Of a stretch of DNA of 64,000 bases, positions 48,745-64,000 are shown piece after piece (within the stretch, counting starts at the first letter, position 1; the number at the start of each line of letters is the position of its first letter). The position numbers and the translations under genes were made by a program. The DNA comes from Thermodesulfobacteriota bacterium (lineage in GTDB: Bacteria > Desulfobacterota_D > UBA1144 > Nemesobacterales > UBA2774). Where the stretch lies: contig OY729416.1 of assembly GCA_963422265.1 (NCBI GenBank), positions 320,001 to 384,000 on the forward strand. The letters run 5' to 3'. Below the pieces are notes generated by a model. The model was not told where the DNA came from. It did no database searches and saw nothing but the letters and a program-made list of their open reading frames with translations.

Positions 48745-49209
48745 GTGATACCCATGGAAAAGTTTGTATTCAAAATAGTGGAGAATAAAAAGGATCTTGA
48801 AGCGTATTTTAAGTTGCGTCACAACGTATTTGTTAAGGAACAAGCGATTTTTGATGAAACCGACTTAGATGAATGCGATACAGAGCCTTTTCACAAAGCC
48901 GTGCACGTTGTAGCTTTGAAAGAGTCGGATGGTCAGATAGTGGGTGCCGTCAGGTGTTACAGGAAGGAAGGTACTACTTGGTTCGGGGGTCGCCTTAGCG
49001 CATCAAAAGGTTATCGGAATGGTAGGGTGGGAGTGGGGCTTATTAAGTTTGCGGTAAGCATAATGAAAAAAGAGAATTGCTCAAAATTTCTCGCTTACGT
49101 GCAGCCTCAAAACGTAAAGTTTTTCGTAAGATTAGGTTGGAAATCGATAGGAGAGCCCGAGATATATCACGGACTTTCTCATCAGCTTATGGAAGCCTGT
49201 TTAGATTAA
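48745..49209 (+). CDS. GNAT N-acetyltransferase, MSMEG_0567 N-terminal / Sll0786 (Nit1C) type
   Basis: LRH.VFV.EQ.IF..TD.DE.D, VGAVR, WFGGRL, F.A.VQ.QN..FF.RLGW and H.LM motifs; cluster context. Start GTG 48745 or ATG 48754. Confidence 0.82.
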   Translation: MIPMEKFVFKIVENKKDLEAYFKLRHNVFVKEQAIFDETDLDECDTEPFHKAVHVVALKESDGQIVGAVRCYRKEGTTWFGGRLSASKGYRNGRVGVGLIKFAVSIMKKENCSKFLAYVQPQNVKFFVRLGWKSIGEPEIYHGLSHQLMEACLD

Positions 49210-49223
49210 CCTAAAGGGTAGTA

Positions 49224-50186
49224 ATGAAGCAATTAATTAAGAGTCTGAAAAAATCTGATAGCTTAGTCCAGAAAGAAACTATTCAAAAAATCTGGAGCTA
49301 TTTCCCTCAAATCTCCGATATAGACGGAGGAGAAGTTCTTCTAGGGGATGATGCCGCCGCTATAGAATTTGGAAACAGTTACTTACTAATTGCAGGAGAG
49401 GGGGTTTATCCACCACTTCTAAAGTTGTCTCCCTACCTTGCGGGGCGTGTTTCGGTTCTTACAAACGTGAACGATATATATGCGATGGGTGGACGGCCTA
49501 TGGCTATTGTTGACGTGCTTATTTCCGATTGTGATGAAAACATGAAAGACGTTCTTAGCGGTATAAAGGAAAATGCAGCCCGCTACAGGGTGCCTGTAGT
49601 AGGGGGGCACGTATCGCAGGATTCTGGATGTTCCTCTCTTTCAGTTTTTATAATAGGTAAAGCTGAAAAGATACTATCAAGCTTTAACGCTCAAAAAGGG
49701 GATGACTTAGTTTTTGTATTTAATCCTAACGGCAAGTTTGTTTCTGGATTTAACTTCTGGGATTCCTCCAGCACCCTCGAAAGCAGCAAAGCGATTAAGG
49801 ATTTAGAGTTAATTGCGGAAGCTGCAGAGGAAGGCTTAGCAGACGCCGCTAAAGACGTAAGTATGAGTGGATTGATAGGCTCCCTCTTGATGATTCTTGA
49901 GAGCTCTCAAGTAGGAGCGGAAATCAACGTTGATACTATTTTGCGACCTTGCAACGTTCCGTTAGCCAAGTGGTTAGTAACGTTTCCTAGCTTTGGTTTC
50001 ATTTTCTCATTAAGACCCGAAAAGACATCGGTGTTTAAGGATAAGTTCAGCGCTTCATCTCTGAGTTGTGAGAGTATTGGAAGGGTCGTAAAGGAGAAGA
50101 GGGTTTATTTTATTAAGGGTGAAAGGGAAAAGGAGCTTTTTTGGAATATCGAGGAGACACCATTTATTGGGGTTAACCTGAGGTAG
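49224..50186 (+). CDS. AIR synthase (PurM/SelD/ThiL/HypE)-related protein, Sll0787 type
   Basis: LGDDAA, NVNDIYAMGGRP, PVVGGH, KDVSM.G..GS..M.LE.S and W...FPSFGF motifs. Confidence 0.85.
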   Translation: MKQLIKSLKKSDSLVQKETIQKIWSYFPQISDIDGGEVLLGDDAAAIEFGNSYLLIAGEGVYPPLLKLSPYLAGRVSVLTNVNDIYAMGGRPMAIVDVLISDCDENMKDVLSGIKENAARYRVPVVGGHVSQDSGCSSLSVFIIGKAEKILSSFNAQKGDDLVFVFNPNGKFVSGFNFWDSSSTLESSKAIKDLELIAEAAEEGLADAAKDVSMSGLIGSLLMILESSQVGAEINVDTILRPCNVPLAKWLVTFPSFGFIFSLRPEKTSVFKDKFSASSLSCESIGRVVKEKRVYFIKGEREKELFWNIEETPFIGVNLR

Positions 50187-50193
50187 GATAAGG

Positions 50194-50778
50194 ATGGAGA
50201 AGGAAGCCAATCAAATTGATCATATCGTTTCTAAACTCGGAGAAAAGATAAAGCTACTCCGTATTGAAAAGAGTTTATCTCTAAGGGATTTGTCTAGTAA
50301 ATCTGGAATCTCTGCTGCGGCTATACACAAGTTGGAGTCAAATGGTATGACTCCAACTATTACTACTATGATGAAAATAGCCGATGCGCTAGAAAGAAAC
50401 GTCAGTTATTTCATAGAGGAAGAAGGGAACAAGGACGTTGTATTTATTCCTGTGACTAAGCGAGAACCTATTCTGACTTTTAAGAAAGGGCTAGACTTAA
50501 AAGGTATTTCAGCGAAACAATACGGTGATTTTATTATGACGGCGGCTTACGCAACGGTAGAAGTAGGAGCGTCTAGCGGACGGACGCCGATGCAGCACCG
50601 AGGTGAGGAGTTGATCTATTGTCTTAGGGGCAAGATAGAGTTCAGTGTGCAGGATGAGGTCTATGTTTTAGATCCGGGGGACAGTATAAATTTCAGGACA
50701 AACTTAAAGCATAGGTGGAAAAATATCGGGGATAGGCAAGCAAAGTTAATATGGGTACTCGCAGTTCCGCCTTCGTGA
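50194..50778 (+). CDS. XRE-family HTH plus cupin transcriptional regulator (PuuR/SutR-like)
   Basis: LGEKIKLLR..K.LSL.DL...SGIS....KLE HTH; H.GEE...G...L.PGDSI.F....H.W.N cupin. Confidence 0.9.
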   Translation: MEKEANQIDHIVSKLGEKIKLLRIEKSLSLRDLSSKSGISAAAIHKLESNGMTPTITTMMKIADALERNVSYFIEEEGNKDVVFIPVTKREPILTFKKGLDLKGISAKQYGDFIMTAAYATVEVGASSGRTPMQHRGEELIYCLRGKIEFSVQDEVYVLDPGDSINFRTNLKHRWKNIGDRQAKLIWVLAVPPS

Positions 50779-50816
50779 GCGGCGTGTGAGCGAATGAAAG
50801 GGAGAATGCTCTAGAA

Positions 50817-52097
50817 TTGAACAAATCGAAACAAGAGTACATGGCAGACCTAATTAGAGACGCAAACGCACTCGCTATGAAGAATATATTATCTGCCGAG
50901 CCTGTGGTTGCAGATGTAGATACTGCACTTAACGTAATACCGGGAATGGATAGCAACGTGATACTTCATTCGGGACCGCCTATCAGTTGGCAGAGAATGT
51001 GTGACCCGATGAAAAGAGCAGTTAGGGGGGCTTTAATGTTTGAGGGGCTTGCGAGAGACGATCTTGAAGCGGAAAGGCTTATGAGATCAAATAAAATAAA
51101 GCTCTCTCCCAACCACCACTGTAATTCTGTTGGTCCCATGACGGGAGTCGTATCGGCTTCTATGCCCGTTATTATTACAAAGGACTTAACTCATGGGAAC
51201 AAGGCTTATTCTACGTTTAACGAAGGTGGAGGAAGGGCGTTGTGGTTTGGTGCTGTCGAAAAAGAGACAATAGAGAGACTTAGGTTTATCAGGGACGTCT
51301 TCGGTCCCGTCATGCAAAGGGTAATTAAGAAAATAGGGGATATACCTATATGGGGCATATTAGCACAGGGGATTCAGATGGGAGATGAATGTCACAATAG
51401 GCATACTGCATCTACCAACATATTTGTAAAAAGTATTATAGAGCCTCTTTTTTCTTTGAAAATCTCAACGGCTCGTGCTCTTCAAGTTTACAGGTTCATT
51501 GCAGGAAACAGCCATTTTTTTCTCAATATAACTATGACTGGATGCAAGCTCGCAATGGACTCGGCAAAAAATATACCTAATTCAACAATTGTAACGACGA
51601 TGTCACGAAATGGCACTGATTTTGGGATTAGGGTCAGTGGTCTTGGGGACAAGTGGTTTACTTATAGCGCCCCTTATTTACGTGACGCGCTCTACAATCC
51701 GGGCTACGACTATGAAGACGGCGCTCCAGATATAGGTGATAGCTCAATAATTGAGACAATGGGTCTTGGGGGATTCGTAATTGCTGCCGCACCTTCAATG
51801 GCTTCTTTTGCTGGAGGCGGATTTCAGGAAGCGGTTAATATAACAAGAGAAATGAGCCAGATAACGTCTTCTAAGAACCCTAAGTTTGGTATTACGTCAT
51901 TAAACTTTGACGGCGCTCCGACTGGCATAGACATTCGTAAAGTTGTTGAAACTGGGATATTGCCAAGTATAAATAGCGCCGTTGTTCATAAAAGCTCCGG
52001 GTCAGGGCAAATAGGTGCGGGGATAGTTCATGCTCCTTATGAGTGTTTTGTGAAAGCAGTTAAGGCATTTGGCGATAAATATAATCTGCACGCATGA
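50817..52097 (+). CDS. ylbE: DUF1116 (YlbE/YahG, AllG-like) carbamoyltransferase subunit
   Basis: ILHSGPPI.W..M..PM..A..GA..FEG, VGPM.G, NEG, MGDECHNR, HFFLN, SRNG..FG, PDIGDS.I.E..GLG and GQIGAG motifs. Confidence 0.85.
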   Translation: MNKSKQEYMADLIRDANALAMKNILSAEPVVADVDTALNVIPGMDSNVILHSGPPISWQRMCDPMKRAVRGALMFEGLARDDLEAERLMRSNKIKLSPNHHCNSVGPMTGVVSASMPVIITKDLTHGNKAYSTFNEGGGRALWFGAVEKETIERLRFIRDVFGPVMQRVIKKIGDIPIWGILAQGIQMGDECHNRHTASTNIFVKSIIEPLFSLKISTARALQVYRFIAGNSHFFLNITMTGCKLAMDSAKNIPNSTIVTTMSRNGTDFGIRVSGLGDKWFTYSAPYLRDALYNPGYDYEDGAPDIGDSSIIETMGLGGFVIAAAPSMASFAGGGFQEAVNITREMSQITSSKNPKFGITSLNFDGAPTGIDIRKVVETGILPSINSAVVHKSSGSGQIGAGIVHAPYECFVKAVKAFGDKYNLHA

Positions 52098-52139
52098 TAA
52101 ACGTAGGATTGGTTAAATGAAACGGACGGCAAGTGACAA

Positions 52140-53699
52140 ATGACAATAGTAAATACGGTTAAAAGAAATAATTATCAGGACTCAATGAAGCTCATGCAGA
52201 TTAGTCGGGAGCTTAAATCTATGTCTGGGGTTATAAGTGCGTCCGCGATAATGGCGACCGAGGCTAATTTGGCGATGTTAAAGGAGGCGGGCTTGATTGA
52301 AAATATCCCCGAGTTAGTTACGGCTAATGATTTAATTGTAGCCATTAAAGCTCAATCCGATGAGGTTGCGAAGGAAGCTATAAGTGAATTGGACTCCCTT
52401 ATAAAGCCTACTGGTTCAACTCTCTCATCGAACTTAGAATATAAGAATTTCGGTTTGGCTTTTAACTCGCTGATTGGGGCTAACCTCACGGTTATTTCCG
52501 TGCCTGGGGAATATGCAAAACTAGAGGTTGCTAAGGCGATTGATAGTGGGCTTCATACGTTTCTGTTCAGTGATAACCTAACGGTTGAGGAAGAGATAGA
52601 GCTGAAGCAAAGAGCTAGGGATAAAGGGCTCTTGGTTATGGGCCCTGGATGTGGAACAGCATTGATAGATGGTATTGGCATAGGATTTGCCAACTTTATC
52701 AATAAAGGCCCAATTGGCGTGATTGCCGCCTCTGGGACGGGGCTTCAAGAGATCACCTGCCTTATTAATAATTTTGGATCAGGCATCACTCACGGAATTG
52801 GAGTTGGGGGAAGGGATTTATCTGAGGAAGTAGGGGGAATTATGACCTTAGAAGCAATAAGGATGCTTAAAAACGATGATAATACAGAGGCACTTGTAAT
52901 TGTTTCTAAACCCCCATCTCGCAGAGTTGCAGATATGGTTGTGTCCGCGGTTAGGGATTCGGGAATGCCGTCCGTTGTTTGCTTTTTGGGCAGCGATCTG
53001 ACTACTCAAGATGGACATATTTATTTTACTTCCAACTTGGAGGATGCAGCCCTTAGCGTAGTCGGACTAACTACAAAGACTGATATGAAGCAAAACCTAA
53101 ACTTAGATAAAGAGTTGTGGGGGCGGGCGAAGGAAATGGTAGAGTCTTTTGATTCTAAGCAGAAGTATATAAGGGGGTTATATTCGGGGGGCACGCTTTG
53201 TTATGAAGCCCAACAAATACTTACTCCAATTCTAGGAACAATATATTCAAATGCCCCACTCAATAAAAAGCACAAACTTAAAGATTCAAGATTGAGCGTG
53301 CGAAACTCCTGTATAGACCTGGGAGAAGAGGAATTCACGATAGGGCGTCCACATCCGATGATAGACGCAGGTTTGAGGGTAGAGAGACTAATAACCGAGT
53401 CGAGTAAACCAGAAGTTGCGGTCATATTATTCGACGTGGTACTAGGCTACGTGGCGAGCTCTGACCCCGCTGGTGATTTGGTATTAGCAATTAGGGATGC
53501 TAGAAGTTTGGCGAGAAAAAGAGGGAAGAACATTGCATTTGTTTCTCACGTGTGTGGCACTGAAAATGATCCGCAGTGCCTACGAGAACAAGAACAAAAG
53601 TTAAAGGAAGAAGGAGTTCTTGTATTTCCGACCAACGCTCTTGCTGCAAGAATCGCCGGGTGGATTGTAAAAAGGGGTGAGGTGGACAAGTATGAATAA
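52140..53699 (+). CDS. fdrA: FdrA (AllF-like) acyl-CoA synthetase-fold protein lacking the short C-terminal domain
   Basis: YQDSM.LM, MATE.N, ISVPG.YA, FSDN, MGPGCGT, ASGTG.QE, GGRDL, GLYSGGTL.YEA, GRPHPMID and GTE.DPQ motifs. Confidence 0.88.
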   Translation: MTIVNTVKRNNYQDSMKLMQISRELKSMSGVISASAIMATEANLAMLKEAGLIENIPELVTANDLIVAIKAQSDEVAKEAISELDSLIKPTGSTLSSNLEYKNFGLAFNSLIGANLTVISVPGEYAKLEVAKAIDSGLHTFLFSDNLTVEEEIELKQRARDKGLLVMGPGCGTALIDGIGIGFANFINKGPIGVIAASGTGLQEITCLINNFGSGITHGIGVGGRDLSEEVGGIMTLEAIRMLKNDDNTEALVIVSKPPSRRVADMVVSAVRDSGMPSVVCFLGSDLTTQDGHIYFTSNLEDAALSVVGLTTKTDMKQNLNLDKELWGRAKEMVESFDSKQKYIRGLYSGGTLCYEAQQILTPILGTIYSNAPLNKKHKLKDSRLSVRNSCIDLGEEEFTIGRPHPMIDAGLRVERLITESSKPEVAVILFDVVLGYVASSDPAGDLVLAIRDARSLARKRGKNIAFVSHVCGTENDPQCLREQEQKLKEEGVLVFPTNALAARIAGWIVKRGEVDKYE

Positions 53700-54654
53700 A
53701 GTTAATGAAACCAACAAGAGAACCGCCATCGTCGCTTTCGGGGGTAACGCTCTTATGGGAAAGGATGGAAATAGCCCCTACGTTGAGCAGATGAGGAAGA
53801 CCGATGTTATGTGTAATAAGCTCCTAAGCCTTTTTAACATGGGTTATAGAGTATTGATTACCCATGGTAATGGACCTCAGGTCGGCAATTTCCTAATGCA
53901 GCAAGAGAATCTAGCTGCAAACGTTCCTCCTCTACCGCTTGACGCATGTAACGCCATGACCCAGGGGCAAATCGGTTATATGATTGAGCAAAGTCTCAGA
54001 AATACGTTCACAAGAAACAAGATAAACAAGCCAATAATCGTTTTGATAACACAGATTGTTGTTTCAGAAGATGACCCTGCTTTTAACGAGCCTACAAAGT
54101 TTATAGGACCGTTTTTTAATAGGCAGCAAAGTGAGAAGCTAAGTAGAGAAGAAGGATGGCTTATGAGAGAGGACTCGGGGCGTGGATACAGACGTATTGT
54201 AGCTTCCCCTAAGCCAATAGATATAATAGAAAAAGAAGAGATAATGGAAATGACAAATAGAGATTTTGTCGTCATAGCTTGTGGCGGGGGAGGAATTCCT
54301 GTGGTTCGTGATAAGAGAAATATGCTTAGGGGCGTGGCAGCTGTTATTGATAAGGATTTTGCTGCCGAAAAAATAGGTAGCTACATGAGAGCAGAAGTTC
54401 TCTTGCTCGTTACGCCCGTCGAGCAAGTGGCAATTAATTACGGGACTCCTAAGCAAAAAGATTTATCTAAAGTTACGCTTGAAGAAGCGGAGCACTATCT
54501 CTCAGAAGGGCATTTTGCCCTGGGAAGCATGGGACCTAAAATTGAAGCTGCTATACAATTTATTCGTTCAGGTGGGGATAAAGTAGTAATAACGTCTATT
54601 GACAATATAGAATCAGCAATAAACGGAGGAGCGGGAACGGAGATAACCCGATAA
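53692..54654 (+). CDS. arcC: Carbamate kinase
   Basis: AFGGNAL, THGNGPQVG, PTKFIGP, GYRRIV.SP.P, GGGGIPV, AVIDKD and GSMGPK motifs; probable ATG 53692 overlapping the fdrA stop. Confidence 0.94.
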   Translation: MNKVNETNKRTAIVAFGGNALMGKDGNSPYVEQMRKTDVMCNKLLSLFNMGYRVLITHGNGPQVGNFLMQQENLAANVPPLPLDACNAMTQGQIGYMIEQSLRNTFTRNKINKPIIVLITQIVVSEDDPAFNEPTKFIGPFFNRQQSEKLSREEGWLMREDSGRGYRRIVASPKPIDIIEKEEIMEMTNRDFVVIACGGGGIPVVRDKRNMLRGVAAVIDKDFAAEKIGSYMRAEVLLLVTPVEQVAINYGTPKQKDLSKVTLEEAEHYLSEGHFALGSMGPKIEAAIQFIRSGGDKVVITSIDNIESAINGGAGTEITR

Positions 54655-54680
54655 GCGTACGAGGATTTATGGGACGGATG

Positions 54681-54710
54681 TTCATCTCCTTATTTCGAAA
54701 TAGGAATGAA
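54681..54710. terminator. Hairpin between carbamate kinase and the DsrE-like gene
   Basis: Imperfect inverted repeat ttcat-ctcct-tatttc/gaaata-gga-atgaa. Confidence 0.4.
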
Positions 54711-54725
54711 GGAGTCTAAAAAAGA

Positions 54726-54759
54726 TTGAACTTACTCTCTGTTTATAATATAATGAACT
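54726..54759 (+). promoter_or_regulatory. Internal sigma70 promoter with an overlapping putative operator
   Basis: TTGAAC (54726), a 17-nt spacer, then TATAAT (54749). The overlapping ATAATATAATGAACT resembles AATATAGTGAAT at 48724. Confidence 0.65.
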
Positions 54760-54870
54760 AAAAGGGGTTTTTGATCTAAACGCTTGAAATGAAAAGTATA
54801 GAAGTTTTTAACGGCGGCGGTGTTTTTTTTGCAAATTAGCAAATAATATATAGATAGGAGGTATTGTGCT

Positions 54871-55362
54871 ATGGCGGTAGATAGAATAAAGGCCGATAGG
54901 CCAGAAGTAGGAAAACCTTTGGTTAACTACGAGGAAAAGCTTTTCCCCGATCATAAGGCGAGAGAGGGAGAGAAGGCGCTGTTCCTTGTGCACTCAGTTC
55001 CTTACGAAGGTTCAGTAGCAGGTATCAATATGCTAACTGCCATAAGGACGAAGAGAAAGGGATACGACACGAAGGTTCTTTTCTATGGACCTGCATCGGC
55101 GATACCTGTATATAGAGGTTGGCCGAACGTAGGAGACGACGGTTACGGAGCGGGTATTCAGCTTTATCCCAATCTTGTAAACAGGATGCTAGGTGAAGGT
55201 ATAACGGTTTATGCCTGCCGTTTTTCGGCGGCGGCTCTTCTAGGTATGAACGAGTCAAGCTTTATTGAGGGTGTAATACCTATTCACCCAACTGATATAT
55301 TAGATATTGTAATAGAGCATCATAGAGCGGGTGCATTGGTGTTTAATACTTGGACTATGTAA
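54871..55362 (+). CDS. DsrE-like MSMEG_0572/Sll0783 family protein (Nit1C)
   Basis: VNYEEKLFPD.KA..GEKAL...H.VP.EGS....N.L.A.R..RKG..T..L.YGP, GWP.VGD and VYACRF motifs; AGGAGG RBS. Confidence 0.88.
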   Translation: MAVDRIKADRPEVGKPLVNYEEKLFPDHKAREGEKALFLVHSVPYEGSVAGINMLTAIRTKRKGYDTKVLFYGPASAIPVYRGWPNVGDDGYGAGIQLYPNLVNRMLGEGITVYACRFSAAALLGMNESSFIEGVIPIHPTDILDIVIEHHRAGALVFNTWTM

Positions 55363-55478
55363 ATTTTAGCGCTCGTCTTTATCGATAACCTGCGGATAAG
55401 CTAAGCAACTTATGCTGAAGCACGATAATCCGTTCTTATTTATGGTTTGCGCATAAATAAACTCTGGGGGGGGGTAAG

Positions 55479-56609
55479 ATGGACTCAAGGACCCTTAAAG
55501 TAGAGTTGCAGAGTCGTGGTCTAAGGATTGCTGACACAAAAAACATTAGGAGAGGCGGGGCTGGTCCTACAGGTGGAATACATTTAAGGATTCTTCCCGA
55601 CAGCGAGGCGAATATTCCAGTTGTAGGAGACTTTGTTAATTCTTCTCCCTACTACTTGGATCAAATCAACGGTGAGCACTGGATATTCAAAGATGAAGTC
55701 GCTTTGGCTCAGGTAGAGCCTATGGGCAACGGCAAGTTCACTGAACACAAAACCTCAATGGGCGTGCCGATGCAGAAGGTTGGCATACTTCACTGTCCAA
55801 CCACCTTTGCCACTACGCTTCTTCAGACCTGTGATTTCTGGCAGGACGAGAGGAGATGCAAGTTTTGTGGTATAGAACTTACGTTGAGAGACAGAAGCAC
55901 GGTTGGATTTAAGAATGCAAGGAGCCTTGTTGAAACAATATCAATCGCTAAGGAATTGGACGGCATATCAAATATCGTATTTACTTCGGGAGTAGCACCG
56001 GATGAGGAGAAAGCTCTGAAAAAATACGCTGAGATATGCTCTGCGGTAAAAAAGGCAACCGAGCTACCAATTCAGTTACAGATTATTCCTCCGGATGACT
56101 TTGCATGGTTTAAGAGGCTAAAGGATTCCGGCGTAGATGCGCTTGGCATTCATATTGAGACCTTTGATCCGGAGGTCTTTGAAAAAATAACGCCCGGAAA
56201 GGCAGGTATAGGCTTTGACAGATATGTAGAGGCTTGGAAGGAAGCCGTTAAGGTATTCGGGAGATGGCAGGTGAGCACTTACGTCCTTGTGGGGATGGGT
56301 GAGAAGTTAGAAACGGTGATGGAGGGCGCGGAGCTGTGCGCTGAGATAGGGGTTTATCCATTTATTGTTCCTTTCAGGCCGGTAGCGGGCACTCCAATGG
56401 AGAATATGAAGCCCCCTAGCCCGGAGACTATGGACTACGTCTATACGGAGGCGGCAAAAGTGCTAGCTCAATATGAGCAGGCATCTAAGAGCAGCCTAGC
56501 AGGTTGCGTCAGTTGTGGTGAGTGCTCTGCGCTTCCTGATTTTGAGAGGGTAGCGGTTAAAAGTAACGTAAAATTCAGAAAGTTCACTAAACGGATGAAA
56601 TTAAGTTAA
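55479..56609 (+). CDS. Radical SAM enzyme, MSMEG_0568/Sll0785 (Nit1C) family
   Basis: ELQS.GLR, RRGGAGP, LH....ATT.LQTC(X8)CKFCGI, GIH.E.FD, VFG..QVSTY, GVYPF.VPF.P..GT and C-terminal AGC..CG.CS motifs. Confidence 0.9.
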   Translation: MDSRTLKVELQSRGLRIADTKNIRRGGAGPTGGIHLRILPDSEANIPVVGDFVNSSPYYLDQINGEHWIFKDEVALAQVEPMGNGKFTEHKTSMGVPMQKVGILHCPTTFATTLLQTCDFWQDERRCKFCGIELTLRDRSTVGFKNARSLVETISIAKELDGISNIVFTSGVAPDEEKALKKYAEICSAVKKATELPIQLQIIPPDDFAWFKRLKDSGVDALGIHIETFDPEVFEKITPGKAGIGFDRYVEAWKEAVKVFGRWQVSTYVLVGMGEKLETVMEGAELCAEIGVYPFIVPFRPVAGTPMENMKPPSPETMDYVYTEAAKVLAQYEQASKSSLAGCVSCGECSALPDFERVAVKSNVKFRKFTKRMKLS

Positions 56610-56639
56610 TTAAAAGTTTTTTAAGGGGTTAAAAGCTAT

Positions 56640-57971
56640 ATGGCTAAAGTGAAAATTGTTGTTATCGGGGGTGGTGCAGGTGGAATCTCTGCGGCATCTA
56701 CGTCTAAGGGTCTTCTACCTAACGCCTCGGTTACCTTGTTTACTGAATTTGAAGACGTTGCGTATAGTCCTTGCGGAATTCCTTTTGTTCTGGGTAAGGA
56801 AATACCTAGCTTTGAAAATCTCTTTCTTCAAACATCTGAGCATTATGCAAAGATTGGCATTGATCTTAAGCTCCAAACCAGGGTTACAGGGATAAATCTT
56901 GAAAATAGGACGGTAAGCGTAGGCTCTCAGACGTTTGAATGGGAAAAGCTCATAATAGCGACTGGGTTTGAATACGACGAGCCAGATATCCCTGGCATTC
57001 ATCTTAAAGGAGTTAAATATGTAAAGAATATTAGAAGAGCAATGGAGTTTGATAAAGAACTTGAAAATATGAAAAGGGCGATTGTCACGTGTGCGACCCC
57101 CCTTGGTATAGAAATGGCTGGAAACCTTGCGCACAGAGGGCTTGAGACTCATCTAGTTGACGAAGGAGCATGGCTTATGTCAGAGGTTGCTGACCCTGAT
57201 ATTATGGAGCCTGTTAAGGAATCCCTCGAGAAGATGGGTGTACAGATTCATTTCGGCACAAAGGTTCTTGAATTTCAAGGCTCTAGTGGAAAAGTCAATA
57301 GAGTTGTGACGAGCGAGGGTGAAATAGGTGCTGACGTAGTTGTGATCGCATCGCATAAAAAGCCGAATAACCGTCTGTCACGAGAAGCCGGGATAAGTCT
57401 GGGGGCAACCGGCGGTATAGTAGTTGACGATCACATGCGAACTTCAGTGGAGAATGTTTACGCGGCGGGTGACTGCACGGAGATTATTCACGGCGTAACG
57501 GAAATACCGATACAGGGGCTTTCGGGAAGTCATGCCTACTCACAGGGACGGGTTGCGGGTGCAAACGCCGCAGGACAGAACCGTTCATACGATCCAGTTT
57601 TTATTCCATGGGGCATGGTTGGAGGACAGGTTCAAATTGGTGGTGTATCAATGGGAGAGACGCTTCATAAAGCACTCGGAATACCTCATATCGTTGCCTA
57701 TTCAGTGGGAATATCAAGAGCAAGATATTACCCAGGGGTTACCAGGATACGGGTAAAGCTCATAGCTGACCCCAAGACTGGTCGCGTATTGGGTGCTCAG
57801 ATGGCTGGGGGAGAAGGGATTAAAGAAAGGGCTGACTTCTTAGCCTTTGTCATTAAGCGTGGAGTGACTATTGACGAGCTCGCTTGGATGGAGAACGTAT
57901 ATTCACCGCCTATAGGGGCGTTAATGGAACCAATTGCTTTGGCAGCCCAGGCGGGGCTAGGCAAGCTATGA
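56640..57971 (+). CDS. Flavoprotein disulfide reductase of NADH oxidase / CoA-(per)sulfide reductase type
   Basis: FAD-binding GGGAGG, redox Cys in YSPCG, IIATG, YAAGDC, GAQ and YSPP. The NAD(P)H-binding glycine motif is replaced by TCATPLGIE. Confidence 0.85.
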   Translation: MAKVKIVVIGGGAGGISAASTSKGLLPNASVTLFTEFEDVAYSPCGIPFVLGKEIPSFENLFLQTSEHYAKIGIDLKLQTRVTGINLENRTVSVGSQTFEWEKLIIATGFEYDEPDIPGIHLKGVKYVKNIRRAMEFDKELENMKRAIVTCATPLGIEMAGNLAHRGLETHLVDEGAWLMSEVADPDIMEPVKESLEKMGVQIHFGTKVLEFQGSSGKVNRVVTSEGEIGADVVVIASHKKPNNRLSREAGISLGATGGIVVDDHMRTSVENVYAAGDCTEIIHGVTEIPIQGLSGSHAYSQGRVAGANAAGQNRSYDPVFIPWGMVGGQVQIGGVSMGETLHKALGIPHIVAYSVGISRARYYPGVTRIRVKLIADPKTGRVLGAQMAGGEGIKERADFLAFVIKRGVTIDELAWMENVYSPPIGALMEPIALAAQAGLGKL

Positions 57972-58030
57972 TATTCATAATTGATAATCATATTCTGAAC
58001 TTTTATACTGCTGGCTTGTGGAGACCATAA

Positions 58031-58279
58031 ATGGCATTCGGGCAATGGTTGAGAGAGAGTGCTGAGAGATACCTGCTTCAGGCAGCTAGCGATGAAATGA
58101 TTTCTCAATATCCGGGATGCTGCGCCAAACCCTATAGAGATGGTCAATCTCAATCTTTTTTCTGGCGGAAGATATTTGTGCCCGCGTATTTGATAATTCC
58201 TTGGAGTCTCCGCAGGAGGCTGATTATCTACTCTTCATATTCAGGTAGGAAGCGTCCACAATGGAAAAAATATACTTAG
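58031..58279 (+). CDS. Small hypothetical protein within the cluster (82 aa, Trp/Arg-rich C-terminus)
   Basis: GGAG RBS; co-oriented and fills the gap between the oxidoreductase and DUF2877 genes. Confidence 0.65.
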   Translation: MAFGQWLRESAERYLLQAASDEMISQYPGCCAKPYRDGQSQSFFWRKIFVPAYLIIPWSLRRRLIIYSSYSGRKRPQWKKYT

Positions 58280-58301
58280 AGGGCTTGGCATCACACGTAG
58301 T

Positions 58302-59360
58302 TTGCCTAATTTACCGTATAGAATACTAGCGCGAGTTACTACGCTTCCCACTCAAATGAAAAGAGAAGATAAAAGGCGTTCCTATAATGTGCAGGCGGGG
58401 TTTATTGGATGTAAGGTTATTCCTGCGTTGCATAGGTCTTATAAGAATTTATGCGTTCATAGTATATTTAACCACGCTTTATATTTAAGTACTCAAGATC
58501 ACGTTTTAATCAAAGTGATAAAGGATAAAGATTATCTGAGCCCTACTTCTTTAGCGTTAAGAGGGGCCGGTGATTTCAGTTTTAACTTAGCCCAGGTGGA
58601 GCAAGGAACGGAAATCATATTTAACGAGAATGGACTTACCTCTAAAGGCAATCTTTTTACAATTGATTTTAAGGGGGCTTCTACCTACGACTCACCCCGG
58701 TTTTCTACAAAGTGCAAGAAATTGAGCGTAGAAGAAATCAGTTTAAACCTTAGAATTTTGCAGGATGTAAGCTATACGTGCCCGTCAAAAGAAGGACTAG
58801 TTCCTCTCTTAGAAAATGTTGAGTTATACGGACCTCTCGAAGTGTTTGCGCGAAAACAGAAGCCAACCTTATCCGAAAATTCCAGACCTTATATAGATAT
58901 GCTAATGTGGGGGCTATATGGGAGAGACGTCGGCATGGCAATGAGGGGTGCGGGAGCGATTATCGGACTCGGACCCGGGCTTACTCCTTCGTGTGATGAT
59001 TTCTTGACAGGTCTCATTCTAAGTCTCAATTTGGGAGGACCCGTTCTTTTTAGAAACGAGACGATTACAGTCGATTTCTTTAAGAGAGTATCCAAAGAAA
59101 TTTGTATGGTGGCTCGGAACAAAACAACTATCTATAGCCTGAACTCACTAAGAGAAGCGGTGATTGGGGAGGGAACTAACAATGCTGTCGAGCTTATTTA
59201 CGGCATCATTGCAGAGTGCCCTAAACGCGTGGCAGATTTGTCAAAGAGGCTAGTTAAGATGGGGGAGACTACTGGAGCCGATATGGCTGTTGGAATCTGC
59301 TATGGAATTAGGTTGTTGACTTCAATTATTGAACTCAGAGAATTAAATGAATACGCATAG
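58302..59360 (+). CDS. ylbF: DUF2877 (YlbF/YahE, AllH-like) carbamoyltransferase subunit
   Basis: VHSIF..A.Y, IIGLGPGLTPSCDDFL.G, TT..S...L and G.TTG.D...G motifs; start TTG 58302 or ATG 58356. Confidence 0.82.
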   Translation: MPNLPYRILARVTTLPTQMKREDKRRSYNVQAGFIGCKVIPALHRSYKNLCVHSIFNHALYLSTQDHVLIKVIKDKDYLSPTSLALRGAGDFSFNLAQVEQGTEIIFNENGLTSKGNLFTIDFKGASTYDSPRFSTKCKKLSVEEISLNLRILQDVSYTCPSKEGLVPLLENVELYGPLEVFARKQKPTLSENSRPYIDMLMWGLYGRDVGMAMRGAGAIIGLGPGLTPSCDDFLTGLILSLNLGGPVLFRNETITVDFFKRVSKEICMVARNKTTIYSLNSLREAVIGEGTNNAVELIYGIIAECPKRVADLSKRLVKMGETTGADMAVGICYGIRLLTSIIELRELNEYA

Positions 59361-60519
59361 AATAGCCCTCCTGACATATTCTACAAAACCTAGAGGTGGC
59401 GTTGCGCATACTTTGTCGCTTGCCAAAAGCCTTGCATCCCTTAGGCATAAAGTGGGTATTTATGCCCTTTCGTCAGGGGAGGATTTCTTCAAGCAGGTTG
59501 GCGTCCCCTATACGCTTATTCCATGTCCTAAAAGGAGTTATGAGAGCGTTGAAGAGAAGGTGAAAGACTATATAAACGTATATACGGAATATCTAGCTAA
59601 TAATGAAAAAATCTACGATATTTACCATGCAGAGGACTGCATTTCAGCAAATGCCCTTTTTAATTTGCGTGAAAGGGGAATCATTAAATTTTATGTGAGA
59701 ACAATTCATCATATAGACGATTTCACTTCAGAATCTCTCATAGATTGTCAACTGAATAGCATACTCAAGCCTGACTATTTAATAGTTGTCAGTAAGTTCT
59801 GGCAGCGTGTGCTCAGAGCTAAATACTCTTTAAGTTCTAACGTTATAAATAATGGGGTTGAAGTAGAGAAATTCAGGTGCAATGAGAAGGCGGGATCAAA
59901 AGAGATTGCTAAGGGAAAGTTCTCTGTTGAAGGTAAAAAAGTAATGTTGAGCATCGGGGGGATTGAACCTCGTAAGAATACTATTACCGCTCTTAGGGCT
60001 TTTAATATTGCCAGAGCCTATTTTAAGGCAAAAGGTGAGAAGCTCATATGGATTGTAGGTGGAGGTGAAACCCTTTTTGATTACAGGGGTTACCGTGAGG
60101 AATTTTACTTAGAAATTGATAAATTAAATCTGCTGTTGGATAGAGACGTTATTATACTTGGAAACGTGCCCGATAGCTCAATGCCTTTTCTATATGAAGC
60201 ATCAGACGTTTTTGTATTTCCCTCTCTTAAGGAAGGGTGGGGGCTCGTTGTCCAAGAAGCAATGGCGTCAGCAGTTCCTGTAATCGCTTCGGATATAGAG
60301 CCTATGACGGAGTATTTGAAGAATGGAGACAACTCAATTCTCATTGATCCTATGGACTATAAAACCCTAGCTAATGAAGTTATAAGAATTATTGAAAACA
60401 AGGAACTAAGAACAAGGATTATAAACAAGGGCAAGGAGACTGCTCAGGCGTATAGCTGGAAAAGCGCAGCTCTGAAACACTCCCGGTACTATTCGGATAT
60501 ACTATCATTTAATGTTTGA
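59347..60519 (+). CDS. GT4 glycosyltransferase, MSMEG_0565 family
   Basis: IALLTYSTKPRGGV.H.L.LA, HAEDCISANAL, RTIHH.DDF....L..CQ, GGIEPRKN, GGETLFDY and FPS.KEGWGLVV.EA motifs. Confidence 0.9.
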   Translation: MNTHRIALLTYSTKPRGGVAHTLSLAKSLASLRHKVGIYALSSGEDFFKQVGVPYTLIPCPKRSYESVEEKVKDYINVYTEYLANNEKIYDIYHAEDCISANALFNLRERGIIKFYVRTIHHIDDFTSESLIDCQLNSILKPDYLIVVSKFWQRVLRAKYSLSSNVINNGVEVEKFRCNEKAGSKEIAKGKFSVEGKKVMLSIGGIEPRKNTITALRAFNIARAYFKAKGEKLIWIVGGGETLFDYRGYREEFYLEIDKLNLLLDRDVIILGNVPDSSMPFLYEASDVFVFPSLKEGWGLVVQEAMASAVPVIASDIEPMTEYLKNGDNSILIDPMDYKTLANEVIRIIENKELRTRIINKGKETAQAYSWKSAALKHSRYYSDILSFNV

Positions 60520-60528
60520 AAGGGAATT

Positions 60529-60927
60529 ATGATAGAAGCAAAAGCCGTATGGAAGAAAAATTATCAGGTAGAGGTTAAGGCAAGACAATTTAATATAGAC
60601 GTTGACGAAGCACCTATGTTTCATGGGGATGATACTGGTATGATGCCTACAGAATTGTTTCTATCCTCGGTGGCTACGTGTTTTTGTCTTGCGCTTGTGT
60701 ACGTTGCTAGGAAACAGAACGTTGAGCTAAGTGATTTGAGAGTTAACGTAACCGGAGAGGTAAATACGAAAAACTGCACGTTTACCAGATTATTCATAAA
60801 AGTAGGGAGTTCTCTCGCTACTGAAGCATTGGAAGAGATGATAAGTGCCGCAAAGAAATACTGTTACGTTAGCAACACGGTCAATAGGTCTTGTCCCATA
60901 GAATATGATATGATAAGTGGCGTCTGA
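60529..60927 (+). CDS. OsmC/Ohr-family protein
   Basis: DE.P..HG.DTG.MPTEL.L.S.A.C and the second Cys in KKYC.VSNT. Confidence 0.85.
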   Translation: MIEAKAVWKKNYQVEVKARQFNIDVDEAPMFHGDDTGMMPTELFLSSVATCFCLALVYVARKQNVELSDLRVNVTGEVNTKNCTFTRLFIKVGSSLATEALEEMISAAKKYCYVSNTVNRSCPIEYDMISGV

Positions 60928-60949
60928 GCTTAAAGGAATGTGTGGTTTG

Positions 60950-61402
60950 ATGCGAAAGGTTATAATCAAATACGGCTACTTCCAGGATTCTCTAAGGCTA
61001 ATGCGCGTTTCAACAGTATTCAGACAAAGAAGCGGCGTAAAGAACGCGGTCGCAGTTATGGCAACGGAGAAAGCGAAACACGTGCTTGAAGACACGGGTC
61101 TTATAACGGATGAGGTTAGGGAGGCAAACGGCAGTGATTTGGTATTGGCGGTAGAGGCTAAATCCAATGAAATTGCCGAACGGGTGATAGGAGAAATGTT
61201 CAAGGAGATTTCAGCGGGTTTGCAAGCGAGCGAGGAAAATACACCTGACTTATTAAAAGATGGGCTCAGGGTTATAAACGTTGGTCTTGACGTGTTTAAG
61301 GATGCGCTTGAAGATCAAGGCGTGAAAACGGTGCACGTTAAGTGGGAAGTGCCAGCAAAGGGTGACGAAAAGATTATTGGTATTTTGAAGAAGATGTGTT
61401 AG
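60950..61402 (+). CDS. Mini-FdrA: FdrA N-terminal domain joined to the FdrA C-terminal domain
   Basis: The N-half YFQDSLRLM..S...MATE...DLVLAV aligns by eye with the first ~80 aa of 52140..53699. The C-half VINVGL..F...L..QG...VHV.W..PA.GD resembles the tail of full-length FdrA. Confidence 0.75.
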   Translation: MRKVIIKYGYFQDSLRLMRVSTVFRQRSGVKNAVAVMATEKAKHVLEDTGLITDEVREANGSDLVLAVEAKSNEIAERVIGEMFKEISAGLQASEENTPDLLKDGLRVINVGLDVFKDALEDQGVKTVHVKWEVPAKGDEKIIGILKKMC

Positions 61403-61438
61403 CTGCGAGTTGGAAGCAGCATAGTGTAGGTGTGTAAG

Positions 61439-62005
61439 ATGAGCATACGAAAACCTGAAAGACTAAAGGACGTGCTCTCAGACCCGCAAGGGCTCGCAAG
61501 GGCATTTTCAAGGCATACTTACGGTATGCTTGTATGGGTAGATTTGTTTGGCTATAAAATTCAATTTATTGAGGATGTTAGCCTCAGAGCCATTGTTACT
61601 AGAATAATCGCTGATAATGCTAAGCACGCGAAACTCTTTGCGAATAGGGCAAAGGAGATGGGGGAAACCCCCGAGGCTTATAATCCTCCTGAGATAGGTC
61701 AAAGAATCTATAATATACTTAGAAACTATGTTAACGTGTTTGATGATTTTGCTTACGCGTGGGGAGCGCTAATACATTTTTCAGCTTTGCTTGACTTGTA
61801 TAGTAGCGTTGCGGATCCCCGAAGCCGCGACGTTATCCTGCAAGTTCAAACTGACGTCATAGTGCATTTGGTGCATCTCGAACGATATTTTGCGGTGAAT
61901 GCTAACACGCAGGAAAAAAGGAAGCGGGTACAGGAGATAAAAGCGATAGTAGATAGCGCATATTCCGATAGAGAGGATGAGGAGATAAAATGGTATGCGT
62001 TGTAG
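61439..62005 (+). CDS. Ferritin-like four-helix-bundle protein with degenerate metal ligands
   Basis: All-helical; IIADNAKHA.LF..RA.E.G and VQTDVIVHL at the two positions expected for (D)ExxH. Fold inferred only. Confidence 0.55.
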   Translation: MSIRKPERLKDVLSDPQGLARAFSRHTYGMLVWVDLFGYKIQFIEDVSLRAIVTRIIADNAKHAKLFANRAKEMGETPEAYNPPEIGQRIYNILRNYVNVFDDFAYAWGALIHFSALLDLYSSVADPRSRDVILQVQTDVIVHLVHLERYFAVNANTQEKRKRVQEIKAIVDSAYSDREDEEIKWYAL

Positions 62006-62843
62006 CAAAATTCCGAGCTTTGAAGAGTTAAAAAAGCCTCTACGTTATCACGATCCAAAGTACTTTTATTTCAAACTTATTTCCTTTTTGTTAAGAGCCG
62101 TTGGAACTTTATCAGACGGGATCAGGGTCGGGTATGATTATGGTTTCGATTCAGGTGCCATAATGAACTACATATATGAAAATACACCTCACGGGCGACT
62201 TGGGATTGGAAAAAGCATTGATGCGACTTTTCTTAATCAGACGACTTGCAAGGCATTCAGGTCTATTAAGCAGATACAAAAGAACGTGATTTTAAAGTAC
62301 TTAAGTGAGAGGAATGATAGAAATACATTTATTGTAGATTTGGCTGCCGGCAACGCAGATTACATATATGACGTATTAGATGAAACTGTATCCGACGTAT
62401 CAGTTCTGCTTTGTGACATAAGTCGAGATACCCTTGCAGAAAGCAAAGCGATAGCAAGGAGACGAAACCTTGTTGATAAAATCCGTTATGAGGATGGAGA
62501 CACTCTTGATCCCGATAATCTGAGAGGCATTGAGCCTTTGCCTAACCTTGTTATTGAGGTTGGGCTTTTCGGTATCATCCATGATGATGAACGGATAAAG
62601 AAGCATATGCTTGATCTTAAAGAGATATTGAATCCGGATGCGTTTTTGTTTAACGTGCAGACATACAACGAGCAAATAGAGATCATAGCAAGAGCGCTTA
62701 AAAACCAGAAGGGAGAGCCTTGCGTCTGGCACCTACGCCCTGCCGAGCTTGTAATAAGTTGGGCGGAGGAAGCTGGCTTCAAAAATCCCGAAGTTACTAT
62801 GGATCCTTATAATATATATGCCGCTGTATTGATGAGAGCTTAA
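61995..62843 (+). CDS. Class I SAM-dependent methyltransferase (YnbC C-terminal-like)
   Basis: LSDGIR.G...GFDSG....YIY.N.P.G...IG..ID..FL, VDLAAG and GLF motifs. Confidence 0.75.
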   Translation: MRCSKIPSFEELKKPLRYHDPKYFYFKLISFLLRAVGTLSDGIRVGYDYGFDSGAIMNYIYENTPHGRLGIGKSIDATFLNQTTCKAFRSIKQIQKNVILKYLSERNDRNTFIVDLAAGNADYIYDVLDETVSDVSVLLCDISRDTLAESKAIARRRNLVDKIRYEDGDTLDPDNLRGIEPLPNLVIEVGLFGIIHDDERIKKHMLDLKEILNPDAFLFNVQTYNEQIEIIARALKNQKGEPCVWHLRPAELVISWAEEAGFKNPEVTMDPYNIYAAVLMRA

Positions 62844-62869: not shown

Positions 62870-64000
62870 ATGAAAAAAGAAAGATTCGTCCTAGATTGGC
62901 GATCCTCTAGTAAAAGTTCTCCATTCCTGAATGAGATTCTATCGGACAGACTTAAATCCGTTCTCGAGAGTCCTCACGGAATGTGGAACTATATGACCTA
63001 CCGCGACGCAATAGGTATGTTGGATTGCGATCCGGGAAATATATATAGGGAAGGTAGGATTGATTTGGATCCCACCGTCTGGGCTGACCTAGGATGGATG
63101 ATCTGCTATGTTGGTCCTCCCTCGAAAGCCGTTGAGGCTATGCGCGCCAATACGATTGAGGACAATATTAATCCTTACTCTCCTGATCTAATAAACCCAC
63201 TTAGGGATACTTCTGCTGAACTAAAATTTAAGCGGTGCAGGAGCAAGGATTTCGAAGTTATAGGATTAGAAGGCAGTCAGGCTGGAGTTTCTTATGTTCT
63301 ACAGTCCGTTATGAACCCGGGGGATGAAGTGATCATAACCGATCCGGGTTATTTTCATTTTGAATCATCAATTCTTATGGGGGGTGGGGTGCCAATTAGG
63401 ATTGTGCTAGATTCGAATAACGGTTTCAGACTAGAGCCCAATCAGGTAGAGGCTTGCATTACACCAAAAACGAAGGTGATTATCGTCTGTGATCCTTTGA
63501 ATCCATTCGGTTCCATCCAGACTAAAGAGGAGCTGCTTCAGATAATAGAAATCGCTAGAAAATACAACGTGATTATCATTGATGATATTACGCATAACAC
63601 CCAGCAAATAGATCCCAATTCCATGCACTATCCAATGACCTCTCTCTATAAAGAGACTAATATAGACAACGTGGTCTCAACCTTTAGCCTTTCACACGGT
63701 TACGGAATGGCTGGTGTAAGGATGGGGTTTCTCGCCGGTAATGCTGAACTAATGCGAGCGTGCCTTATAGCAAAAACCTCGCTAACTAGGCTTAATACCA
63801 ACCTTATAGCACAATACGGAGCTTTAGCCGCTCTTCAAGATAAAGATTACCTAATATACTCCCAGAACGTTATTAGGCGTAATTATAAAATAGTCAAGGA
63901 GATTATAAGGAATAACAAGGGGGTGTCCATACCCGTTGAGCCTCAGTATGGTTTCTCTATGGTTATTGACATCTCAGAAACTGGGGTATCCTCTCAAGAG
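62870..64000 (+). CDS. Fold-type I (class I/II aminotransferase-like) PLP/PMP enzyme with Lys-to-His at the cofactor site; 3'-truncated by the window and absent from the ORF track
   Basis: Manual translation is open from ATG 62870 to the window end: MKKERFVLDW...GSQAG...NPGDEVIITDPGY...VCDPLNPFG...IIIDDITH...STFSLSHGYGMAGVRMGF...AQYGALAAL...PQYGFS. Confidence 0.88.
   Translation, partial: MKKERFVLDWRSSSKSSPFLNEILSDRLKSVLESPHGMWNYMTYRDAIGMLDCDPGNIYREGRIDLDPTVWADLGWMICYVGPPSKAVEAMRANTIEDNINPYSPDLINPLRDTSAELKFKRCRSKDFEVIGLEGSQAGVSYVLQSVMNPGDEVIITDPGYFHFESSILMGGGVPIRIVLDSNNGFRLEPNQVEACITPKTKVIIVCDPLNPFGSIQTKEELLQIIEIARKYNVIIIDDITHNTQQIDPNSMHYPMTSLYKETNIDNVVSTFSLSHGYGMAGVRMGFLAGNAELMRACLIAKTSLTRLNTNLIAQYGALAALQDKDYLIYSQNVIRRNYKIVKEIIRNNKGVSIPVEPQYGFSMVIDISETGVSSQE

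Follow-up and report, generated by a model that had tools for sequence, protein, structure and literature searches.

The stretch of DNA analysed here (the window; 64,000 nucleotides, G000:C1:320001-384000, from the single-contig, 1,783,595-base genome of a Thermodesulfobacteriota bacterium) ends inside a gene for an aminotransferase-fold protein with a histidine, His276, at the position where vitamin B6 enzymes have their Schiff-base lysine. This gene and its product, which we refer to as the His gene and the His protein, belong to a large clade in which the histidine is fixed and in which a gene for a Methyltransf_20 (PF12147) S-adenosylmethionine (SAM)-dependent methyltransferase lies directly upstream; a sister clade keeps the lysine and has replaced, instead, the aspartate that contacts the pyridine nitrogen of the cofactor. 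A B6 enzyme without its Schiff-base lysine is normally taken to have lost its function, and the only studied natural exceptions, to our knowledge, are the sugar 3-dehydratases ColD, E1 and SpnQ. Natural B6 enzymes with histidine for lysine are thus of a known kind, and what appears from the sequences to be new here is the lineage. We suggest, at a little short of an even chance, that these proteins constitute a second, independent natural family of lysine-free B6 enzymes, within the aspartate aminotransferase (AspAT) lineage, in which a switch between Lys276 with Asn239 and His276 with Asp239, on a background of shared His242, would separate two new reaction types, and in which the His form and its methyltransferase would make or tailor a small molecule of a nitrilase-less, Nit1C/gpr-type pathway.

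The open reading frame (ORF) runs open through the end of the window, and in the whole-genome sequence the gene extends 255 nucleotides further, to G000:C1:384255, for a product of 461 residues. Both the ORF and its CAC codon at the Schiff-base position had been pointed out in an initial annotation of the window, and both are borne out by direct reading, which gives the context S-L-S-H-G-Y-G-M-A-G-V-R-M-G, and by HMMER alignments to solved aminotransferases, which place His276 onto the Schiff-base lysine of 1j32, 1dju, 1gd9 and 1bkg; as also stated there, two base changes are needed to reach CAC from a lysine codon (AAA or AAG). In a search of 5.8 billion proteins, 8000 candidates were scored and 1093 of them matched at E ≤ 0.001; all of the best 120, which were listed (the query and 119 others at 62-72% identity), carry the motif S-x-S-H-G-Y-G, their named sources being Dadabacteria, Thermodesulfobacteriota and "Deltaproteobacteria" metagenome-assembled genomes (MAGs). 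The initial annotation had allowed for close homologues that all have lysine here and had proposed to look for conservation of the histidine; what we find is histidine in each of these 120 proteins and in 127 full-length sequences of the clade described below.

At the DNA level, codon 276 shows no difference in whole-stretch contigs from three studies, with depths of 17-42; the most divergent of these contigs has 11 differences, of which 10 are listed, seven of those 10 being synonymous (the sequencing run X7 spans only a part of the gene, with codon 276 outside it). The gene is found in 52 of 120 species-level genomes of the phylum, in 39 of 94 high-quality genomes and in 18 of 32 genera, and no internal stops occur in the matched copies from the 52 genomes. 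From these comparisons we conclude that the gene is real, conserved and under selection, with His276 fixed by selection throughout a large clade. The idea of a private mutation, of an error in sequencing or assembly or of a pseudogene in decay, to which we attach a practically negligible probability, is already refuted by the 120 listed proteins, the contigs of three studies and the intact copies in 52 genomes, to which can be added the histidine in all 77 His forms among 126 fetched loci, a class that is itself defined by this residue; no point in its support was found.

By sequence and fold, the His protein is placed in PF00155 (Aminotran_1_2), which it matches over residues 84-369 with 101.9 bits against a Pfam cut-off of 19.7, while the match to the DegT family (PF01041) is partial and restricted to residues 148-242 (33.5 bits). 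Of the nine proteins of the genome that match PF00155 strongly, it scores lowest, with 111.5 bits against 174-246 for the other eight, and all NCBIfam equivalogs remain far below their cut-offs (the best at 150.7 bits against 351). Public homologues carry the plain annotation "pyridoxal phosphate-dependent aminotransferase". An AlphaFold2 (AF2) model built on an 82-row alignment (predicted local distance difference test, pLDDT, 94.2; predicted template modelling score, pTM, 0.93) has as its top Foldseek match the prephenate aminotransferase 6f5v, followed by the AspAT 1j32, 1gd9 and 1bjw (E ~1e-26 to 1e-24, TM-scores of 0.82-0.88 normalised by target length, 19-25% identity), and the rows shown, down to rank 50, contain no chain of ColD or E1.

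The class I-γ (subgroup Ib) aspartate, aromatic and prephenate aminotransferases (1j32, 1dju/1gd9, 1bjw, 6f5v) therefore share with the His protein the Pfam family and the fold, and they also have in common with it the P-x-N-P-x-G loop, the aspartate at the pyridine nitrogen, the phosphate-binding serine and arginine and the arginine that binds the α-carboxylate. The His protein is, on the other hand, only 20-31% identical to them, has His276 for the lysine and His242 for the tyrosine that contacts O3' of the cofactor, and bears extensions at both termini. As it falls into the PF00155/class I-γ lineage and not into that of DegT, the lysine-to-histidine change arose independently of the one in ColD and E1, in agreement with the separate lysine-free lineage that the initial annotation had envisaged.

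Our reading of the pocket draws on alignment to solved enzymes and on the roles of the AspAT residues Tyr70, Asn194, Asp222, Tyr225, Lys258, Arg266 and Arg386. In this reading, the loop D-P-L-N-P-F-G (residues 208-214) would provide Asn211, the segment D-D-I-T-H (residues 238-242) the aspartate at the pyridine nitrogen, and Ser273, Ser275 and Arg284 the phosphate contacts, to which Tyr103, presumably the counterpart of AspAT Tyr70, would add a further one from the partner subunit. A single-sequence alignment pairs Asp238 with the pyridine-nitrogen aspartate; we favour Asp239, on the grounds of the profile alignment, a MAFFT alignment of 82 sequences and the pattern of conservation. The initial annotation was right to list the phosphate-site Ser/Ser/Arg, the N-P-x-G loop and the aspartate as retained, and overlooked that the O3'-contacting tyrosine is gone, its place being taken by a histidine within a Thr241-His242 pair that is invariant in 126 of 126 aligned family sequences, Lys and His forms alike. 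Equally invariant across these 126 sequences are Asn211, Ser275, Arg284, Arg405 and Tyr103. The His protein is a PF00155 member that lacks two of the defining catalytic features of the family, the lysine and the O3' tyrosine.

When 1.84 billion cluster representatives were searched exhaustively with phmmer, the family showed a sharp boundary, with only 39 proteins at E ≤ 1e-30 and with ordinary aminotransferases, at ~30% identity, starting near E 1e-37. Family members have a conserved N-terminal extension of ~80 residues and a helical C-terminal one of ~35 residues, both of which ordinary aminotransferases lack. Further members, found with a profile, carry the names of Pararhizobium polonicum, Ensifer soli and an Oscillochloridaceae MAG. 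Full-length members number 219, of which 127 have His276 and 92 have Lys276 (clade and locus counts use a refined pattern, Lys forms with T-K or S-K-S variants having been included after inspection). The Lys-bearing sister clade, with its asparagine for the pyridine-nitrogen aspartate, had escaped the initial annotation. It is 40-50% identical to the His clade and has the same extensions and the same T-H motif, but differs from it in the retained Lys276, in Asn238-Asn239, in the absence of the methyltransferase gene upstream (0 of 35 loci) and in its neighbours, which include GntR/FCD regulators and genes of catabolic type. Position 239 is Asp in 124 of the 127 His-clade sequences and Asn in all 92 Lys-clade sequences, which have Asn at position 238 as well (92/92).

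At eleven positions, each clade is fixed, at 95% or more, for a residue of its own (36, 39, 42, 104, 138, 239, 273, 276, 307, 309 and 451), and five of these, 239, 273, 276, 307 and 309, would lie around the active site, to judge by sequence context, a pattern that looks like a remodelled site rather than like decay. No lysine is fixed in the His clade only (127 His against 92 Lys full-length sequences), and none is found among the 38 positions that are invariant across 126 family sequences. These data bear on the idea that the His protein is an ordinary transaminase after all, with another lysine reaching the cofactor to form the usual internal aldimine; the initial annotation had named the lysine of the I-A-K-T-S motif (Lys302) as a candidate. 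Lys302 is indeed conserved in the His clade, as are Lys119 and Lys202; however, the three are equally conserved in the Lys clade (Lys119, Lys202 and Lys302 in 92, 92 and 90 of 92 sequences), which has its own Schiff-base lysine, so that they do not look like substitutes, and we regard an ordinary transaminase of this type as highly improbable.

In a quick IQ-TREE tree with six ordinary aminotransferases as outgroup, the Lys clade forms one group (Shimodaira-Hasegawa-like approximate likelihood ratio test, SH-aLRT, 99). Rooted on this outgroup, the tree nests it within a grade of His forms, as if lysine had changed to histidine and back; we rejected this reversal because the likelihood is higher when all 29 His rows are kept together as a single clade (by 3.63 log-likelihood units; approximately unbiased test, p-AU, 0.654) and because the branch to the outgroup is very long. 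A single lysine-to-histidine change is enough to account for the sequences, its direction resting on the outgroup having lysine.

Some further features of the family may be recorded here. The Lys clade comprises named Rhizobiaceae and a Chloroflexota MAG (loci L049-L094, L102, L104 and L116; proteins P0121 and P0273-P0365), and a fold-type-I enzyme without the aspartate is in itself unusual; a search of a plasmid collection with a Lys-clade protein gave no match. One Lys form, P0125, has a C-terminal extension of ~290 residues without a Pfam match, and P0231 has an N-terminal part of 485 residues, likewise without one. Of three cysteines in the His protein, Cys79 and Cys298 are kept in 122 and 124 of the 127 His-clade sequences, the Lys clade having Asn or Ser and Ala, respectively, at these positions, and Cys207 is conserved in both clades. 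E1 and SpnQ, but not ColD, have a cysteine motif for a [2Fe-2S] cluster, and the three cysteines might conceivably come together in a metal or iron-sulfur site of this kind.

What a histidine may do in place of the lysine is best known from ColD, E1 (AscC/DdhC/RfbH) and SpnQ, the nucleotide-sugar 3-dehydratases that depend on pyridoxamine phosphate (PMP). Their histidine replaces the catalytic lysine and acts on PMP as both base and acid, taking the C4' proton of the Schiff base between PMP and the ketosugar and driving the elimination of the C3 hydroxyl group, and the exchange H220K turns E1 to single-turnover transamination (PMC8987622). Like the His protein, these enzymes are of fold type I and have a natural histidine for the catalytic lysine; they differ in belonging to the DegT/DnrJ/EryC1 family and in acting on sugar nucleotides, whereas the α-carboxylate arginine retained in the His protein points to an amino or keto acid. 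A second point of comparison is the engineered AspAT mutant K258H, which is said, in work by Malashkevich et al. in Biochemistry in 1995, to keep catalytic activity. It has the same substitution in the same branch of the superfamily, but was made in the laboratory from a normal transaminase, while the histidine described here is natural and fixed, together with further fixed changes (His242 and positions 273, 307 and 309).

With these precedents in mind, we give an even chance to the His protein being a working, lysine-free B6 enzyme of AspAT (class I-γ) fold that holds PMP or pyridoxal phosphate (PLP) non-covalently and uses His276 as its acid/base. The cofactor would be bound by non-covalent contacts only, from Asn211, Asp239, His242, Ser273/Ser275, Arg284 and Tyr103, and would rest as PMP or as free-aldehyde PLP and not as an internal aldimine; His276 would move protons between C4' and Cα, as in ColD, E1 and SpnQ and in engineered AspAT K258H. 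Since Arg405, the α-carboxylate arginine, is retained, the substrate would be an α-keto or an α-amino acid. As to the reaction, we favour an elimination or rearrangement on a keto acid with changed specificity, proceeding through a PMP-ketimine in the manner of ColD, because every natural lysine-to-histidine precedent switches away from plain transamination; this specific chemistry is possible, though the chances are against it.

The gene directly upstream of the His gene codes for the Methyltransf_20 protein. We fetched 126 related loci, 46 of them genomic and 80 metagenomic, with 77 His and 49 Lys forms, and found a Methyltransf_20 gene immediately upstream in 66 of the 67 His loci whose upstream sequence reaches 900 bp or more and in none of the 35 comparable Lys loci; the 66 loci comprise 63 from a script count and three (L006, L103 and L117) added by gene order, and the remaining one, L098, is truly without the methyltransferase. 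The same picture is obtained across the phylum, where Methyltransf_20 occurs in 53 of the 120 genomes, namely all 52 with the His gene and G069, where a fragment of it lies at the end of a contig. The methyltransferase is therefore the obligate partner of the His protein, a role for which the initial annotation had considered the flavoprotein and the glycosyltransferase encoded further upstream. The minimal unit is this pair, co-inherited with the gene cluster described below, as the cluster is unlinked in some genomes and as the pair stands alone, among unrelated genes, in locus L026. In one 393-residue fragment, P0156, Methyltransf_20 is fused to the N-terminus of the aminotransferase-fold protein, which could be a read-through of gene calling, and no longer fused forms (808-2305 residues) were found at E ≤ 1e-30. 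A prediction of the complex between the two proteins gave a score of 0.00 and a mark of 0.32, which counts neither for nor against binding.

The methyltransferase (model m575032a25304, pLDDT 90.3) has no sequence match in the PDB, and its Foldseek neighbours, at TM-scores of ~0.5, are many small-molecule O- and N-methyltransferases that are spread evenly across substrate classes. The characterised ones include, at the same weak level of similarity (TM ~0.5) and with E-values near those of the O- and N-methyltransferases, the α-keto-acid C-methyltransferases SgvM (8rxf, 8fts) and MppJ (4kic). These belong to β-methyl amino-acid pathways, in which an α-keto-acid C-methyltransferase is paired with an aminotransferase, so that here, too, a SAM-methyltransferase and an aminotransferase-fold gene form a unit; the structural likeness is weak, however, and the partner aminotransferases in these pathways keep the normal lysine, unlike the His protein. 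These neighbours and pairs suggest, by analogy, a chemistry other than elimination or rearrangement, in which the His protein, by way of its histidine, would shuttle the amino group of a keto acid that its partner methylates; we think this unlikely, more so than the ColD-like reaction. Among solved structures, the methyltransferase most resembles 3ocj, a Bordetella parapertussis protein that is itself uncharacterised, and PF12147 also scores over its cut-off in the genome of Escherichia coli that served as control. Atlas look-ups gave generic names only, and neither this family nor PF12147 proteins were found described in the literature searched, from which most subscription journals are missing.

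The strict pairing with one other gene is also what would be expected of a subunit, and it can be asked whether the His protein is a non-catalytic pseudoenzyme, that is, a ligand- or cofactor-binding subunit, a sensor or a scaffold that serves the methyltransferase or the pathway. The lost lysine and the replaced O3' tyrosine would fit this, and pseudoenzymes can also be highly conserved. Against it speak the invariance of all other residues for binding cofactor and substrate, the histidine in 127 of 127 sequences, and the activity of natural and engineered fold-type-I enzymes with histidine for lysine. The retention of Asp239, which the sister clade replaced, points in the same direction: as the electron sink of the cofactor, it would not be needed by a mere binding protein, and its retention in the His clade argues for carbanionic B6 chemistry over passive binding. 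We consider a pseudoenzyme of this kind unlikely. An enzyme that has given up B6 and whose pocket has been re-purposed, for instance for a SAM-derived or keto-acid ligand coming from the methyltransferase, would explain why two canonical contacts to the ring have changed (Lys to His and Tyr to His) and might make use of the long, highly conserved terminal extensions that ordinary aminotransferases lack, but it would leave the conservation of the phosphate-site Ser/Ser/Arg with Tyr103, of Asn211 at O3' and of Asp239 at the pyridine nitrogen without a reason, the set being specific for pyridoxal or pyridoxamine phosphate; we take this to be decidedly unlikely.

A lysine-free B6 enzyme, the reading that we prefer, has to be held against several further observations. 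Cofactor binding is deduced from conserved residues only, and both the tyrosine-to-His242 change in the whole family and the aspartate-to-asparagine change in the sister clade depart from the canonical site, so that the analogy with AspAT may mislead. The analogy with ColD and E1, in turn, covers one residue only, since a scan of the 28 neighbouring ORFs found no E3-like reductase, no recognised iron-sulfur motif of E1 type and no sugar-nucleotide genes (4,6-dehydratase, nucleotidyltransferase). Finally, the structural neighbours of the methyltransferase (TM ~0.5) do not discriminate between substrate classes.

The coordinates of the pair, of the residues discussed and of the neighbouring genes are collected in Table 1. 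Upstream of the pair, within 8 kb of the His gene and in a run on the same strand, lie members of three signature families of the Nit1C/gpr cluster, all over their curated cut-offs. The nitrilase of Nit1C (TIGR04048, nitrilase_sll0784) is not found in the whole genome, the best match, located elsewhere, reaching 219.5 bits where the cut-off is 502.6, and the cluster is by these matches a nitrilase-less variant of the Nit1C/gpr type (MSMEG_0565-0572, sll0783-0787), the chemistry of which has been unexplained since 2005. At window positions 48745-60519, it is joined to AllG-, FdrA- and AllH-like and carbamate-kinase-family genes. In M. smegmatis, the gpr cluster (MSMEG_0565-0572) is reported to confer GlnR-dependent peroxide resistance (PMC6039565).

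Table 1. Position of the His gene, of selected residues and of neighbouring genes in the window (L002, locus reaching beyond the window end).
Feature	Coordinates	Strand	Basis or remark
His-type aminotransferase-fold gene, first 1131 of 1386 nt	62870..64000	+	461 aa; PF00155; AF2 model
His276, codon CAC, Schiff-base lysine position	63695..63697	+	Direct read and HMMER alignments
Asp239, codon GAT, putative pyridine-N aspartate equivalent	63584..63586	+	Profile alignment to 1dju, 1gd9, 1j32, 1bkg
His242, codon CAT, position of O3'-contacting Tyr (D-x-x-Y)	63593..63595	+	Profile alignment; invariant 126/126
Asn211, codon AAT, P-x-N-P-x-G loop	63500..63502	+	Invariant in 82-sequence alignment with ordinary aminotransferases
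Ser275, codon TCA, phosphate-site serine just before His276	63692..63694	+	Invariant 126/126
Arg284, codon AGG, phosphate-binding arginine	63719..63721	+	Invariant in 82-sequence alignment
Tyr103, codon TAC, N-P-Y motif	63176..63178	+	Family-invariant; at least 90% in wider alignment
Cys79, Cys207, Cys298	63104-63106, 63488-63490, 63761-63763	+	His-clade conservation
Methyltransf_20 (PF12147) class I SAM-methyltransferase	61995..62843	+	Pfam 167.5 bits; directly upstream of His gene
191-aa protein, weakly ferritin-like, no Pfam/NCBIfam match	61430..62005	+	26-homologue profile vs 1nf4; conserved neighbour
161-aa protein, FdrA N-terminus-like	60917..61402	+	NF004760 76.1 bits, below cut-off; conserved neighbour
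OsmC-like protein	60529..60927	+	Pfam PF02566, 72 bits
MSMEG_0565-family GT4 glycosyltransferase	59347..60519	+	TIGR04047 371.9 bits vs cut-off 259.85
AllH-like protein	58302..59360	+	Pfam PF11392, 69.2 bits
Pyridine-nucleotide-disulfide oxidoreductase, CoA-disulfide-reductase-like	56640..57971	+	PF07992 168.3 bits; TIGR03385 283.9, below cut-off 578.8
MSMEG_0568-family radical SAM protein	55479..56609	+	TIGR04043 342.6 bits vs cut-off 303.7
MSMEG_0572/Sll0783-family protein	54871..55362	+	TIGR04044 173 bits vs cut-off 109.85
GNAT, AIR-synthase-related, HTH-cupin regulator, AllG-like, FdrA-like CoA-ligase-fold, amino-acid (carbamate) kinase-family	48745..54654	+	Pfam
CysK/CBS-like PALP gene, just past window end	L002:255-1202		Downstream of His gene
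LysA-like Orn/DAP (ornithine/diaminopimelate) decarboxylase gene, just past window end	L002:1232-2464		Downstream of His gene

The radical SAM protein, taken as a marker of the cluster, is present in 50 of the 120 phylum genomes: 48 genomes have both the His gene and the marker and 66 have neither, while four have the His gene only and two the marker only, all six discordant genomes being 59-90% complete. As related genomes are non-independent samples, these counts are descriptive. The initial annotation had proposed to test whether the histidine tracks with the cluster, and it does so in 48 of the 52 His-gene genomes. The more specific link proposed there, to the flavoprotein and the glycosyltransferase, holds insofar as both lie in the Nit1C/gpr-type core that co-occurs with the His gene across genomes, but not as regards adjacency, the His gene and the radical SAM marker being 84 kb apart in G010 and on separate contigs in G001, G013 and G015. 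We propose that the His protein and Methyltransf_20 work as a unit and that the nitrilase-less Nit1C/gpr-type pathway would be served by this pair along with two paralogues, one of them a LysA-like decarboxylase and the other, present in most genomes, a CysK/cystathionine β-synthase (CBS)-like protein.

The genes for these two paralogues follow the His gene just beyond the window. Among the 50 His loci that extend 2.4 kb or more downstream, the PALP gene comes next in 31 and the decarboxylase gene lies within 1.3 kb in 42, with neither found in six. Both are extra paralogues, the true lysA (523.6 bits) and cysK/M (395.2 bits) being located elsewhere in the genome, and the CysK-like protein has near-equal scores for the CBS, cysteate synthase and CysK models, all of them below cut-off. 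Immediately upstream of the methyltransferase gene, the 191-residue protein yields a profile of 26 homologues that weakly matches bacterioferritin 1nf4 (E 6.9e-4) and, also weakly, aldehyde decarbonylase; it has two invariant D-x-x-x-H pairs (D62/H66 and D142/H146), which may form an atypical di-metal site.

The other contexts of the family are more varied. In L026, two small ORFs of 129 and 130 residues without a Pfam match (L026:8251-9092) precede the lone methyltransferase/His pair. L098, which lacks the methyltransferase, holds a more distant His form (55% identity), whose neighbours (L098:3900-14334) are a luciferase-like monooxygenase, a LysA-like decarboxylase, three OsmC-domain proteins, a COX1-like protein and a MetY-like PLP enzyme of Cys/Met metabolism, so that the decarboxylase, OsmC and a PLP enzyme of sulfur-amino-acid type recur in a second context. 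One may speculate that the OsmC proteins, the disulfide-reductase-like flavoprotein, the CysK- and MetY-like enzymes and the peroxide role of gpr hint at a redox-active, possibly sulfur-containing product. The neighbourhoods of the Lys forms are variable, with a divergent GntR/FCD regulator in 14 of 50 clustered loci and with DAO-type and OYE-type flavoenzymes, SDR, thiolase and enoyl-CoA hydratase among the other neighbours, and look catabolic.

If the His protein is indeed a working B6 enzyme, it would represent a second, convergent family with histidine for the catalytic lysine, this time in the lineage of the amino-acid aminotransferases, and the complementary replacement of Asp by Asn in its sister clade would amount to a natural experiment on the way in which the Lys/Asp pair determines reaction specificity. 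Databases label these proteins as ordinary aminotransferases, which misleads the metabolic reconstruction of Dadabacteria-like and other genomes, and the obligate pair of a methyltransferase and a B6-fold protein offers a new point from which the chemistry of the Nit1C/gpr cluster can be put to the test.

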